A DNA stretch of 47,511 nt from Escherichia phage ECO95 1-6-1, in the sequence record OR845258, one strand, 5' to 3'. The first letter of the stretch is position 1. The number at the start of each line of letters is the position of its first letter. A program made the translations under genes and the position numbers. The notes below the pieces were generated by a model. It searched no databases. It saw only the letters and a list, made by a program, of their open reading frames with translations, and was not told where the DNA came from. Of the stretch, positions 15,903 through 24,237 are shown piece by piece.

Positions 15903-16130
15903 ATGACGATGAGTAAAGAATACCGATTTGGCAGTGCGATTGGTGAGGTCTGGGATTTCGTGCGTGATATGTTGGTTGGTGATCGTAAGGAGTTTAACTT
16001 TGATGAGTTTACCGCTAATGAAGGATTAAGGGGATTCAGAGTGAACCTTCATAAGGTTGCAGTGCGGAACGGATGGATGTTTAAAACACGAGCTAAGGAG
16101 GGTGGTTTGTGGGTTAAGCGGATTAAGTGA
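15903..16130 (+). CDS. hypothetical protein (75 aa)
   Basis: ATG with AAAAGGGGA RBS; first gene of the plus-strand replication operon. Confidence 0.55.
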   Translation: MTMSKEYRFGSAIGEVWDFVRDMLVGDRKEFNFDEFTANEGLRGFRVNLHKVAVRNGWMFKTRAKEGGLWVKRIK

Positions 16131-16141
16131 GGTGTTGGGAT

Positions 16142-16564
16142 ATGAAAAGGTACTACATTGAGGCAATTGGGGCTGATGGTAAAAAGGTATATGCCAGCGG
16201 TAGATGTGGTTTTCTGCATGATTTTACCTATGCAAAGTTTTTCAAAACAATAGAGGAGGCTGAGAGGTATATGGCGTGGCGGAAGCCGCATCTCCCGTGT
16301 GAAATAAAATGCAAGGAGCAAAGGGTAAAAAAACGGGCCGCGTCTGTGTGGGAGCAAAAACCGACAATGGAGGGAGAGGCTCGCAACTTCGTCTACCGAC
16401 TTGGTTTGGGTAAGGGAAAGCATTTTGTGTTTGATGATTTTGCGTTGATAAGGAGTATTGAGCAGTTGAGAAGTGCGCTTTCCGTGGTTGGTAAGAAGCT
16501 GCAAAAAAAATTCAGTGTCAAGATGGTTGCACGTAATACCGCTTATGTGGTGAGGGTTAAATGA
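16142..16564 (+). CDS. hypothetical protein (about 140 aa)
   Basis: ATG at 16142 with GTGAGGTG RBS (the track starts at the GTG at 16127). Confidence 0.5.
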   Translation: MKRYYIEAIGADGKKVYASGRCGFLHDFTYAKFFKTIEEAERYMAWRKPHLPCEIKCKEQRVKKRAASVWEQKPTMEGEARNFVYRLGLGKGKHFVFDDFALIRSIEQLRSALSVVGKKLQKKFSVKMVARNTAYVVRVK

Positions 16565-21575: not shown

Positions 21576-21953
21576 ATGTACGAAGTTATCTGTGATTACT
21601 GCAATATTGCGACAAGACTAGCTAAAGGGAGTGAAATTTACCCACACAGACCAGACCTTTCGTCTCTTAATTTTTATCTATGTGATTCTTGTGGTGCTTA
21701 TGTTGGTTGCCACAAAAATGGTGATGGGAAAAGACCTCTTGGGCGTGTGGCAAATGAAGAATTAAGAAAGGCAAAAAGCAAAGCCCATGCTGCATTTGAT
21801 CCCTTATGGAAATCAGGAAAAATGTCAAGAGGCTCTGCTTATTCTGCATTAGCTAGTTCGATGGGAATAAGAAAAGAGAAGTGTCACATAGGAATGTTTG
21901 ATGTTAAGCAGTGCGAGCATGTTGTCGAGTGGTGCAAGGAGTTTGACTTATGA
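21576..21953 (+). CDS. zinc-finger protein (DUF3268-like)
   Basis: CDYC...CDSCGAYVGCH cysteine cluster; ATG at 21576 with GGGGG RBS. Confidence 0.45.
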   Translation: MYEVICDYCNIATRLAKGSEIYPHRPDLSSLNFYLCDSCGAYVGCHKNGDGKRPLGRVANEELRKAKSKAHAAFDPLWKSGKMSRGSAYSALASSMGIRKEKCHIGMFDVKQCEHVVEWCKEFDL

Positions 21954-23815
21954 AATACACACTAAGGCCATACCAACAGGAAGCTGTTGATTCAGCTATG
22001 GCACACATTCGCAGCACAATCTCATCATGCGTTATCATCCTACCTACAGGTGCAGGAAAATCTATGGTTGTAGCAGAACTTGCATCTCGTATTTATGGCA
22101 TGAGCAAAAAGCGAGTTTTGTGCATTGCTCCCACGGCGGAACTCGTCACACAAAATCGCGCTAAATATCTTCTCACCGGAGAACCAGCCAGCATGTTCAG
22201 TGCAAAGGCTGGCCCAAAAAACCTGCGTCATCCGGTGGTGTTTGGTTCACCAGTTACAATCAAGAACTCAATAGAGATGTTTGGTGATAAGTATGGTGCT
22301 GTCATTATTGATGAGTGCGATGGAATAACACCAACCATTAAATTTATTATTAATGAAATGAAGCGTCGCAATCCAAAACTGCGTGTTATTGGAATGACCG
22401 CTACGCCTTATCGCCTTGGAACTGGATACATCTACAAAGAGCATTACCTCGACGGTCCTACAGATGAAGAAACAGCCATAGACCCATATTACGACAAAGT
22501 CGTTTATGAGCTTGAGGCGAAATTCCTCATTGAAAACGGATACCTTACGCCGCCAGTTACAGAGCCTGTTTTTGACGAGTATGATACGTCTTGTCTTGAA
22601 AAGGATAAGTTGGGTCGGTACACAACATCTTCAGTTGAAAAGGCGATGGTTGGCAAGGGAAGGAAGACATCACGTATTGTTGAAGATATTATCCGTCGCT
22701 CCGTTAATCGTCTCGGAACGATGATTTTTGCCAGCACAAAGAAACACGCTATGGAGATAATGGAGTCACTGCCTCCCGGTTCTTATAGTTATGTTTTTGG
22801 TGATATGCCGACAGCTGAACGCAATAAGGCAATATCAGACTTCAAGGCGCAAAAAGTTAAATACATCGTCAATCAGAATATCCTTACTGTAGGGGTGGAT
22901 GTTCCTCATTGTGATCACATAGCAGTAATGAGAGCCACAGAATCACCAAGACTATACCAGCAAATAATTGGCAGGGGGACGCGTCTTTATGAAGGCAAGG
23001 AAGACTTTCTTGTCAGCGATTACGCAGGCAATATTCAACGTCACTTTTCTGAGACCGGGGACTTGTTCACTCCAGAAATAAAAGCAACAAGGAAAAAACC
23101 ATCCGTGCCAATGGATGTCAAATGCCCTCTTTGTGGCTTTATTAATGAATTTGGTGTGCGCCCAAATCCTGAAAATCTTGAAGTTGACAAGGAAGGTTAC
23201 TGGCTGGATTTGGCGGGTGACAGAGTAATGATTGATATTTTTGATAAGTCAGGTGAAAAGATTGGAAGCAAGCCCATGCCTGCTCATTTTGGTAGGCGGT
23301 GTAAAAACTACGTTATGCATGGACCACTAAGGGAAATGCATAGGTGTACTTATAAATGGTCGGTAAAGGAGTGTCCAGATTGTGGGTTTGAAAATGATAT
23401 AGCAGCAAGAAATTGCACATCATGCGGAGCTGAAATTATTGACCCCAACCAAAAACTAAAGGAAGAAGCTGACAGGCTTGATTCTTCTCCTTATGCAACC
23501 AAGCAATCAAGTGTAACCATGATGAACATCATGAAGCATTACGTTTCAAGCGGTGAAGATTTGGTGCACGTAAAATTTGCTATTGAACAGAAACCATTTT
23601 TTGTTAGCAAGTTCTACAATCCAAACTCTGAGAAGGAATGGATGAAGAAGGAGTGGGAAGAATTTTGTGAGAAGTGCTTTGGTGAACATAACATGTCAAT
23701 TGATGATGCAATATCTAAAAGAGATGAGGCTGTCTCGCCATCAGTGATTATGTTCAGAAGAGATAAGGGTAGTAAATATTTCAACGTTAAAGGCATGTAT
23801 TGGGGGGTATTATGA
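21950..23815 (+). CDS. SF2 DEAD/DEAH-type DNA helicase with C-terminal zinc ribbons
   Basis: Walker A ILPTGAGKS, DECD box, motif III GMTATPYR, motif VI QQIIGRGTR; C-terminal KCPLCGF and CPDCGF...CTSCG ribbons. Confidence 0.9.
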   Translation: MKYTLRPYQQEAVDSAMAHIRSTISSCVIILPTGAGKSMVVAELASRIYGMSKKRVLCIAPTAELVTQNRAKYLLTGEPASMFSAKAGPKNLRHPVVFGSPVTIKNSIEMFGDKYGAVIIDECDGITPTIKFIINEMKRRNPKLRVIGMTATPYRLGTGYIYKEHYLDGPTDEETAIDPYYDKVVYELEAKFLIENGYLTPPVTEPVFDEYDTSCLEKDKLGRYTTSSVEKAMVGKGRKTSRIVEDIIRRSVNRLGTMIFASTKKHAMEIMESLPPGSYSYVFGDMPTAERNKAISDFKAQKVKYIVNQNILTVGVDVPHCDHIAVMRATESPRLYQQIIGRGTRLYEGKEDFLVSDYAGNIQRHFSETGDLFTPEIKATRKKPSVPMDVKCPLCGFINEFGVRPNPENLEVDKEGYWLDLAGDRVMIDIFDKSGEKIGSKPMPAHFGRRCKNYVMHGPLREMHRCTYKWSVKECPDCGFENDIAARNCTSCGAEIIDPNQKLKEEADRLDSSPYATKQSSVTMMNIMKHYVSSGEDLVHVKFAIEQKPFFVSKFYNPNSEKEWMKKEWEEFCEKCFGEHNMSIDDAISKRDEAVSPSVIMFRRDKGSKYFNVKGMYWGVL

Positions 23816-24237
23816 TTTTTCCTGAATGGCTAAAGGTATATGGAGATAAAACATACAGAGACAAGAAGTGTCATGTTGAAGACGCTGAGCTTGTAACTTT
23901 TATAAATCAATTGAGGAAAATGTATCCTGATAGTTTTGGTCGGCTGGTGCTTCACATTCCAAACGAAGGAAAGAGAAAAGCACATGAGGTCAGCAACCTA
24001 AAAAAGAAAGGCGCTTTAAATAAAGGTGCGTCAGATATAATAATCCCTGGAAATCCATCTCTTGTTATTGAGATGAAGAGGAAAGACCACACTCTTAGCG
24101 ATTGGGAGGAAGGCCAGATTGATTACCTTTCCGCATCTTTAAATGCCGGATGCACAGTGTGTGTAGCGCTAGGATGGGAAGCAGCAATGATGGCTTTTAA
24201 CGACTGGAGATCGAAGAATTATCCAAAACAAAATTAG
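23812..24237 (+). CDS. VRR-NUC domain nuclease
   Basis: HIPNEG, GASDIIIPG and VIEMKRK...EGQ motifs typical of VRR-NUC; ATGA overlap with the helicase stop. Confidence 0.8.
   Translation: MIFPEWLKVYGDKTYRDKKCHVEDAELVTFINQLRKMYPDSFGRLVLHIPNEGKRKAHEVSNLKKKGALNKGASDIIIPGNPSLVIEMKRKDHTLSDWEEGQIDYLSASLNAGCTVCVALGWEAAMMAFNDWRSKNYPKQN

Follow-up and report, generated by a model that had tools for sequence, protein, structure and literature searches.

The window analysed here is a stretch of 47,511 nucleotides from Escherichia phage ECO95 1-6-1 (sequence record OR845258). It carries a block of replication genes at 15903-24237 and, elsewhere in the genome, a gene (41966..42502, plus strand) for a 178-residue derivative of the bacterial beta clamp, DnaN, which we refer to as the mini-clamp. 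The reading that we favour, at a probability of roughly 55%, is a joint account in which the DNA is elongated by host DNA polymerase III (Pol III), while the phage contributes a recombination toolkit, a protein (SSB) that binds single-stranded DNA and has a host-type docking tail, and a module that would act off the clamp ring through its retained pocket for clamp-binding motifs (CBMs). The clamp fragment is the most interesting part of this account, and the dependence on the host replisome is ordinary.

A Predicted Pocket Module Derived from the Beta Clamp

In phmmer searches, the mini-clamp matches enterobacterial DnaN at E 5e-14, and the clamps of more distant bacteria more weakly. Its residues 8-155 align to DnaN 136-289, a further alignment places its last 60 residues on DnaN 313-366, and its C-terminus reads VVMPMRL, the same ending as that of host DnaN; homology to clamp domains is seen in the fold as well as in the sequence. 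The first-pass annotation of this DNA, made from the letters alone, had described the protein as a DnaN-like mini-clamp. The relationship stands, and the pocket is kept, but the name of a clamp fits the protein poorly, since it has neither domain I nor a ring interface and only half of domain III.

With its 178 residues, the mini-clamp is not a three-domain protomer of ~366 residues that scores above the DnaN family cut-offs: it reaches 18.5 bits with Pfam beta_2 and 16.1 bits with beta_3 (cut-off 27), and 37.2 bits with TIGR00663 (cut-off 137.65). It consists of domain II and one half-domain. Domain I and the first half of domain III are absent, I272, L273, E298 and E304 have no aligned counterpart, and the head-to-tail interface of DnaN, which involves I78 and F106 of domain I and I272 and L273 of domain III, is not present (interface and CBM-pocket residues were taken from the lists in PMC11139829). 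Nor does the structure model contain the second of the inner helices of domain II. In all these respects the protein departs from E. coli DnaN, of which it is half the size, and it differs in charge as well, being neutral to basic where DnaN is acidic (median isoelectric point, pI, 8.2 for the mini-clamp family versus 5.2 for DnaN). Because domain I and the interface residues are missing, the sequence predicts that the mini-clamp cannot form the canonical beta2 ring and is a pocket module rather than a clamp. Likewise, the inner helix missing from the model and the basic pI argue against encirclement of DNA and against loading by a clamp loader.

At the level of sequence, the pocket itself is retained. 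Of its 18 residues (subsites I and II), 16 are identical in the mini-clamp, and across 134 family members 13 of the 18 pocket positions are at least 60% conserved, versus 22 of the 141 aligned positions outside the pocket (Fisher P 1.5e-6). The ratio of nonsynonymous to synonymous substitution rates (dN/dS) of the mini-clamp gene relative to Shigella phage Sf11 is 0.08. In the clamp, Pol III alpha, epsilon and delta are among the proteins that dock in the CBM pocket, and so do many non-polymerase proteins (PMC11139829).

Canonical CBMs were sought with the patterns Q-phi-x-[LM]-[FL] and Q-phi-x-[LM]-x-[FL]. The phage proteins contain 4 matches against 3.9 expected, none of them in the replication proteins or the module, and no canonical CBM was found in the family A polymerases and primase-helicases of two other phages that carry the gene, Dhillonvirus 'rolling' and Kagunavirus fFiEco02. 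Since the phage replication proteins carry no canonical CBM, the ligands of the mini-clamp are probably host proteins. Outside the structural genes, a single CBM-like hexamer was seen (QMHLSL, at residue 155; chance level), in a ParB/KorB-like protein (phrog_1033, 9.7e-91), whose gene at 40625-41434 belongs to the same plus-strand cluster as the mini-clamp gene and lies two genes upstream of it.

Both PHROG (phrog_3007) and RefSeq label proteins of this kind 'RusA-like Holliday junction resolvase', among them gp36 of Sf11 (L001, 24917-25453), and the label was seen on many of the matches listed. We rejected it for the 178-residue protein, whose sequence, profile and fold are all those of a beta clamp. 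The mislabel may have arisen from adjacency to RusA in lambdoid phages (as at 7163-8151 of L007).

Distribution and Neighbours of the Clamp Family

An exhaustive HMMER search returned a family of 1,941 clusters at 50% identity. The best 150 of these 1,941 clusters are nearly all 160-215 residues long, and the first full-length DnaN appears at E 1.5e-11. Using tblastn, the mini-clamp gene was found in 303 phage records (Salmonella, Escherichia, Vibrio, Klebsiella, Burkholderia and others), under labels that include "DNA polymerase III beta subunit", "RusA-like Holliday junction resolvase" and "DNA polymerase". Homologues are present in 'rolling' (E 1e-33) and in fFiEco02 (6e-24), each of which also encodes a family A polymerase above the Pfam cut-off. 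Because homologues occur in phages that have a polymerase of their own, the mini-clamp is not tied to a polymerase-less lifestyle, and its gene is not a marker of polymerase-less genomes.

In a metagenomic contig with lambdoid-type genes (L005), the mini-clamp homologue lies downstream of Erf and SSB genes and adjoins a homologue of the Pol III theta subunit; the order over 10001-11978 is mini-clamp homologue, theta homologue (PF06440, 59.8 bits) and a gene with a RelA_SpoT domain. In other metagenomic contigs, homologues directly follow RecT and YqaJ, directly follow RusA, or lie near an SSB gene. Recombination and SSB genes are the most frequent neighbours of the mini-clamp homologues in this small sample of four metagenomic contexts. 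In three unrelated virulent lineages, namely this phage (41966-42502), 'rolling' (L002, 25381-25893) and fFiEco02 (L003, 5043-5564), the gene adjoins the head-gene cluster or lies within it, and the structural genes around it are on the other strand. In the literature searched, we found no description of the short-clamp family, of its 1.5-domain architecture with retained pocket, or of its independence from polymerase content.

A Phage SSB with a Host-like Tail

The SSB gene of the replication block (20997..21518, plus strand) encodes a protein of 173 residues, a length shared by its homologues. The protein scores 26.1 bits with Pfam DUF669 (PF05037; cut-off 21), matches phrog_9002 ('SSB') at 2.5e-69 and has an acidic C-terminal tail ending in DFDSDVPF, and its gene follows those for Sak4 and Gp157, in that order; these are features of the DUF669, or N4-type, phage SSBs. 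The last 16 codons (21468..21515, plus strand) specify a copy of the enterobacterial SSB C-terminal peptide (SSB-Ct), which reads APSNEPPMDFDSDVPF in the phage and APSNEPPMDFDDDIPF in E. coli, 14 of the 16 residues being identical. A host-like SSB tail had been claimed from the first inspection of the sequence, and this comparison bears it out. Similarity to bacterial SSB is limited to the tail, with PRK09010 matching residues 138-173 and PDB 1EQQ residues 127-173, and no core homologous to the oligonucleotide-binding (OB) fold of bacterial SSBs was found with PF00436 or PRK09010.

Searched with blastn, 5,424 of 5,426 E. coli genomes gave a match to the tail segment at the 3′ end of ssb; among the matches listed, identity was ~85% over 54 nt. 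Among the residues shared by the two tails, 11 of 14 use the codon of E. coli ssb, versus 5.8 expected from phage codon usage (P ~0.003). Such codon sharing above expectation, albeit over a short segment, favours an origin of the tail from a captured ssb 3′ end and argues against convergence purely at the protein level. A tip of the type D-D-D-[IV]-[PG]-F is general among 120 DUF669 relatives, and an acidic DDDIPF-type tip in DUF669 proteins was noted by Kazlauskas et al. (PMC4889955).

A RadD-like Helicase as Candidate Client of the Tail

The 621-residue product of 21950..23815 (plus strand) is an ATPase/helicase of superfamily 2 (SF2), with ResIII and Helicase_C domains and CxxC zinc-ribbon pairs. 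By phmmer, it matches E. coli RadD (6JDE/7R7J) at 1.8e-103 over residues 2-403 and again over residues 443-506, the zinc ribbon; both RecA-like motor domains and the zinc ribbon are homologous to those of RadD. The NCBIfam profile heli_RadD_YejH (NF053632) matches at 1.9e-139 and 465.6 bits. This is under the equivalog cut-off of 720 because the C-terminal ~115 residues of the phage protein have no RadD match; the best stretch covers positions 1-392 of the 573 in the profile. Judged by these similarities, the phage helicase is a RadD homologue, i.e. a predicted recombination and repair ATPase and SSB-Ct client, and not an evident replicative helicase. The earlier call of an SF2 helicase with zinc ribbons holds, and is here narrowed to a RadD-like protein.

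RadD itself acts in recombination and repair and is no helicase of the fork. The ATPase of RadD is stimulated by the SSB C-terminal peptide via a pocket framed by R21, R49 and R145 (PMC10238739). The corresponding phage residues are R21, K53 and R145, and the hydrophobic positions of the pocket are still hydrophobic or small. Compared with E. coli RadD (PMC10238739; 6JDE/7R7J), the phage protein is alike in its motor domains, its zinc ribbon and the three basic SSB-Ct residues; it is unlike in being phage-encoded, in belonging to a module with Sak4, SSB and VRR-NUC genes, and in its unmatched C-terminal ~115 residues. No description of a RadD-like SSB-Ct client in such a module was found in the literature searched.

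In phage HK620, loading of Sak4 on SSB-coated single-stranded DNA (ssDNA) depends on the acidic tip, or last six residues, of its DUF669 SSB (PMC5928155). Given this precedent and the retained SSB-Ct pocket of the RadD-like protein, it is plausible that the SSB tail has at least two clients within the phage, namely the RadD-like protein and Sak4. Host clients of the tail, such as chi (PMC11139829), are equally plausible, since the tail nearly matches the host peptide. The HK620 system (Hutinet et al. 2018, PMC5928155) uses the same gene families for Sak4 and SSB, likewise closely placed. The HK620 SSB has the tip NDYPPF, whereas the SSB described here has a 16-residue copy of the enterobacterial SSB tail and shares its module with a RadD homologue.

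Absence of a Phage Replicative Polymerase

In almost all open reading frames (ORFs) of the window over ~120 residues, PHROG and Pfam scans identified neither a DNA polymerase nor a clamp loader or ligase, and a proofreading exonuclease was likewise not found among the larger ORFs. Prim-Pol is the only polymerase-type domain in the ORFs scanned. Unassigned ORFs, including those at 4491-5105, 39603-40244, 44316-45602 and 33078-33782, were considered as places for a cryptic polymerase and rejected, as neither PHROG nor Pfam revealed one. The absence of a DNA polymerase, a clamp loader and a ligase, claimed by the first-pass annotation, is therefore confirmed by these searches. The window is very probably a complete phage genome, so that absence from the window is close to absence from the phage; the genome of Sf11 (genus Cedarrivervirus), at 46.5 kb, is similar in length to the 47.5 kb of the window. 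Upstream of the module (14600-16000), where an origin or iterons were sought, there are no direct repeats and only two weak inverted repeats.

With no replicative polymerase in the genome, synthesis by host Pol III is to be expected. Bulk DNA synthesis by Pol III is indeed the default expectation, well supported but ordinary, and polymerase-less modules of this sort are already known, as are acidic-tailed DUF669 SSBs and their link to Sak4.

The gene at 16561..18894 (plus strand) encodes a fusion of a PrimPol domain, i.e. an archaeo-eukaryotic primase (AEP), with PriCT_2 and a DUF3987 P-loop NTPase, and is a likely primase-helicase or initiator. All three Pfam domains are above their cut-offs, namely: Prim-Pol (1.5e-17, 64.9 bits), PriCT_2 (1.2e-18, 67.7 bits) and DUF3987 (1.5e-11, 44.5 bits); in addition, the protein matches phrog_3022 ('DNA primase') at 6.8e-177. 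The AEP motifs DID (residues 80-82), GGGGRH (113-118) and IDF (139-141), as read from the sequence, are intact, as are the Walker A motif GSGSGKG (385-391) and MDE (434-436) of the P-loop domain. A phmmer comparison with all solved structures (E <= 1), NrS-1 polymerase included, gave no match. The fusion is the only candidate in the block for a primase-helicase at the fork.

How the Parts May Work Together

We propose that the phage would supply an initiator or primase-helicase, in the form of the PrimPol-PriCT2-P-loop fusion, together with a recombination set made up of the Sak4 annealase, Gp157, the DUF669 SSB, the RadD-like ATPase and the VRR-NUC nuclease, and would leave bulk synthesis to the host Pol III holoenzyme, as other polymerase-less phages do. 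The functions that are missing and the precedent of those phages point to this dependence on Pol III. On phage ssDNA, the tail of the SSB would serve as a docking peptide that recruits the phage RadD-like protein and Sak4; near-identical to the host peptide (14 of 16 residues), it could also recruit SSB-binding proteins of the host, such as PriA and the clamp-loader subunit chi. The clamp derivative would most likely be a soluble or adaptor module that binds CBMs and engages host proteins bearing them, such as Pol III alpha, epsilon and delta, Hda, MutS/MutL and the translesion polymerases. From the identities, architecture, conservation and distribution observed for these proteins we infer every interaction named here and the functional link between the dispersed genes; the outcome for the host replisome may be recruitment or competition.

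Several points weigh against this account. Homologues in polymerase-encoding phages show that the mini-clamp does not simply stand in for a processivity factor that the phage lacks. In beta clamps generally, too, no residues are better conserved than those of the pocket, and their conservation in the family partly reflects homology detection. Furthermore, the mini-clamp may form a ring of another, non-canonical kind, such as one of four 1.5-domain units, and the PrimPol domain could in principle synthesise DNA beyond priming.

The first-pass annotation had envisaged two hub interfaces through which the phage attaches to host Pol III. The lack of a polymerase, the SSB-Ct peptide and the CBM pocket survive from this idea; a canonical clamp and a tie to polymerase-less genomes do not, and the tail would also have clients within the phage. 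In its full form, the mini-clamp and the SSB tail would make up a two-point hijacking device, in which the mini-clamp, as a processivity factor or tether, links the Pol III core to the phage primase-helicase and the tail brings in the clamp loader via chi. We consider such a device unlikely. Its attractions are a genome without polymerase, a conserved CBM pocket, a host-like tail, the theta homologue that adjoins the mini-clamp homologue in contig L005, and the homologues in lambdoid-type contigs with replication genes of the lambda-P/DnaT type, which are users of the host replisome. However, the lack of domain I, of the ring interface and of an inner helix makes canonical processivity by encirclement improbable, the gene is also present in phages with their own family A polymerase, it belongs here to another gene cluster ~18 kb away from the module, and the CBM scan found no motif linking the mini-clamp to the phage primase or helicase. 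The homologues in polymerase-encoding phages, and those beside annealase genes, give about the same weight to a role in competition as to one in recruitment. Here the mini-clamp would be a decoy that occupies the CBMs of MutS/MutL, Hda, delta and the translesion polymerases, off the host clamp, with no direct part in phage DNA synthesis; mismatch repair might then reject fewer Sak4/RecT/Erf annealing products, or the control of host replication might be upset. The presence of the family regardless of phage polymerase, its monomer-like architecture with intact pocket, and the many non-polymerase proteins that dock in the pocket (PMC11139829) all agree with this role, as do three of the four metagenomic contexts, in which the gene lies within ~5 kb of annealing or SSB genes (Erf and SSB, RecT and YqaJ, SSB). 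In addition, the host is strongly affected when the clamp hub is titrated: over-expression of MuC is lethal and host replication over-initiates, for which the authors blame disturbed Hda/clamp control (regulatory inactivation of DnaA, RIDA; PMC12867686). The genomic evidence is nonetheless one of association, in a sample of four contexts, and competition presupposes amounts of product large enough to rival the host clamp; we therefore regard a decoy, too, as doubtful.

It is very unlikely that the PrimPol-P-loop protein is a self-priming replicative polymerase like that of NrS-1 and that the host polymerase is dispensable; the PrimPol of NrS-1 has been described as the replicative polymerase of that phage (PMC8718748, PMC7102993). 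The AEP catalytic triad is intact and fused to a P-loop domain, but the protein has no detectable sequence similarity to NrS-1 polymerase or any solved structure, its PriCT_2 and DUF3987 architecture and its PHROG annotation are of the primase type, and the ORF scans of the genome found no proofreading exonuclease. Most improbable of all is a coupling by the clamp derivative of late transcription or packaging to replication, with no role in DNA synthesis, as with T4 gp45 and as in Mu with the host clamp. These two precedents (PMC12867686) and the placement of the gene beside or inside the head cluster, on the opposite strand, in the window, 'rolling' and fFiEco02 speak for it. On the other hand, contigs of temperate phages have the gene in their early, recombination or nin regions, and no CBM-bearing transcription factor was identified in the CBM scan, the sole non-structural CBM-like match being that of the ParB-like protein, in a total at chance level.

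Beyond our favoured account of Pol III elongation with a recombination toolkit, a docking tail and an off-ring pocket module, we raise a broader suggestion, tentatively and with the odds against it. The ~180-residue family might be an uncharacterised class of viral 'hub-pocket' modules, in which a clamp has been cut down to its CBM-binding piece and is used off the ring to capture replisome or repair proteins of the host, or to redirect them. In this phage, the module would be paired with a captured SSB tail on a non-homologous SSB, and both major recruitment hubs of the fork would be rewired.

Comparison with Known Systems

In the lambda O/P system and in the satellite phage P4 with its alpha primase-helicase, the phage gives initiator, primase or helicase functions and the host Pol III holoenzyme elongates. 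The phage described here differs in its AEP-type primase, its full recombination set, its host-tailed SSB, and the clamp-derived protein encoded elsewhere in its genome. Phage-encoded homologues of Pol III theta, to which Hot of phage P1 is linked, are likewise small phage-borne copies of a Pol III accessory subunit; no theta homologue was found in this window.

A UV-inducible short form of E. coli beta, beta*, is said to have been described by the Livneh laboratory in 1996 as a protein of ~26 kDa that comprises domains II and III, with all of domain III kept. The mini-clamp has a similar starting point, at the beginning of domain II, but keeps one half-domain where beta* has the whole of domain III. 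It also differs from the non-ring herpesvirus proteins UL42 and UL44, which have two full domains and are, to our knowledge, always found together with a polymerase of their own.

In 2016, Kazlauskas, Krupovic and Venclovas (PMC4889955) pointed out, as an open question, the PolIII-beta homologues that stand alone in viruses lacking a polymerase. The mini-clamp resembles them in being a cellular-type clamp homologue in a genome with no polymerase gene, and differs in features that are not mentioned in the parts of that paper dealing with these homologues, namely: the 1.5-domain architecture, the retention of the pocket, and the co-occurrence with phage family A polymerases. The window gives the question raised there a concrete form, i.e. 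a large family, under purifying selection, in which the pocket is kept and the ring parts are discarded, and which is often mislabelled. Should the pocket prove to bind partners in the host, the family would offer a natural protein tool against the clamp hub, an antibiotic target, and a means to study how replication and repair of the host are commandeered or shut down by phages. Together with Sak4 and the host-type SSB tail, the RadD-like protein would make up a directly testable circuit for recombination-dependent phage replication, which may also bear on the portability of recombineering systems.

Other Genes of the Module and of the Window

The presence of Sak4, Gp157, VRR-NUC and RadD-like genes makes the block at 15903-24237 a replication-plus-recombination module, here that of a Cedarrivervirus-type siphophage. 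A partial record of Salmonella phage S.Kent 1-2-1 has 100% identity to the block, while Shigella phage Sf11, Escherichia phage Sa179lw, Klebsiella phage YX3973 and Salmonella phage gmqsjt-1 are 90-94% identical to it. Gene assignments made at first sight of the block (PrimPol, SF2 helicase with zinc ribbons, Sak4-like, DUF669, Gp157-like and VRR-NUC) all hold when examined with Pfam, PHROG, profiles and a structure model. The Sak4-like RecA-fold ssDNA annealing ATPase (19689..20531, plus strand), whose gene is near that of the SSB, matches Pfam AAA_24 (1.9e-27, 96.9 bits; cut-off 27) and phrog_124 ('Sak4-like', 6.3e-46). The Gp157-family protein (20485..20979, plus strand) matches Pfam Sipho_Gp157 at 3.1e-38 and phrog_253, which is labelled Mu Gam-like, at 3.5e-43.

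The last gene of the module (23812..24237, plus strand) encodes a PD-(D/E)xK nuclease of the VRR-NUC type. Its product has no Pfam match (E <= 0.1), failing the threshold of PF08774, and no NCBIfam match. A profile built from 62 homologues matches the VRR-NUC structure PDB 4QBL at E 0.0045, with the catalytic D...ExK aligned (GasD...iElK), and the AlphaFold2 (AF2) model (pLDDT, the predicted local distance difference test score, of 91) retrieves with Foldseek the bacterial and viral VRR-NUC structures 4QBL, 4QBO and 4QBN as top matches (probability 0.97-1.0), followed by FAN1. D79, E91 and K93 are invariant in the 62 homologues, and together the profile and the model indicate that the VRR-NUC label is correct. 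M5 of the listed ORF is likewise invariant in the homologues, which makes the ATG at 23812 the probable start of the gene. Over its final ~160 bp (24076-24237), the gene has 91% identity to a stretch without annotation in Escherichia phage ECML-4, an unrelated phage of 157 kb.

At the head of the module are two small leader ORFs of 75 and 145 residues (15903..16564, plus strand) with no assigned function; neither has a Pfam or NCBIfam match, and the 145-residue ORF gives only a weak match to phrog_28700 (no assigned function). The PrimPol fusion gene is followed by that for a 131-residue protein (18891..19286, plus strand), also without assigned function, which matches phrog_33005 (no assigned function) at 2.8e-92 and has no Pfam match. 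A small ORF on the opposite strand (19312..19596, minus strand) is a putative helix-turn-helix (HTH) regulator. This label comes from position only, which corresponds to that of gp6 in the Sf11 annotation, a lambda-repressor-like regulator on the opposite strand directly upstream of sak4. Between the SSB and RadD-like genes lies a gene for a DUF3268 zinc-finger protein (21564..21953, plus strand; Pfam DUF3268, 4.6e-38), at a place where the Sf11 annotation has no gene between SSB and helicase. A DUF3268 gene is also found in the unrelated lambdoid-type contig L005 (6970-7347), 3 kb upstream of the mini-clamp homologue.

By PHROG and Pfam, the other larger ORFs of the window encode structural, lysis, HNH, Ant-like and ParB-like proteins. 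Three HNH endonuclease genes, at 5212-5850 (minus strand), 12014-12517 (minus strand) and 33878-34378 (plus strand), all belong to phrog_99 and are scattered among head, terminase and tail genes; two of the three are clearly similar by eye, and they are reminiscent of mobile homing endonucleases. Finally, a gene for an Ant-like anti-repressor (35966-36631; phrog_63, 8.9e-57) and a single tRNA-Met (37039-37115) adjoin the major tail gene, and the corresponding region of Sf11 has tRNA-Ser and tRNA-Arg instead.

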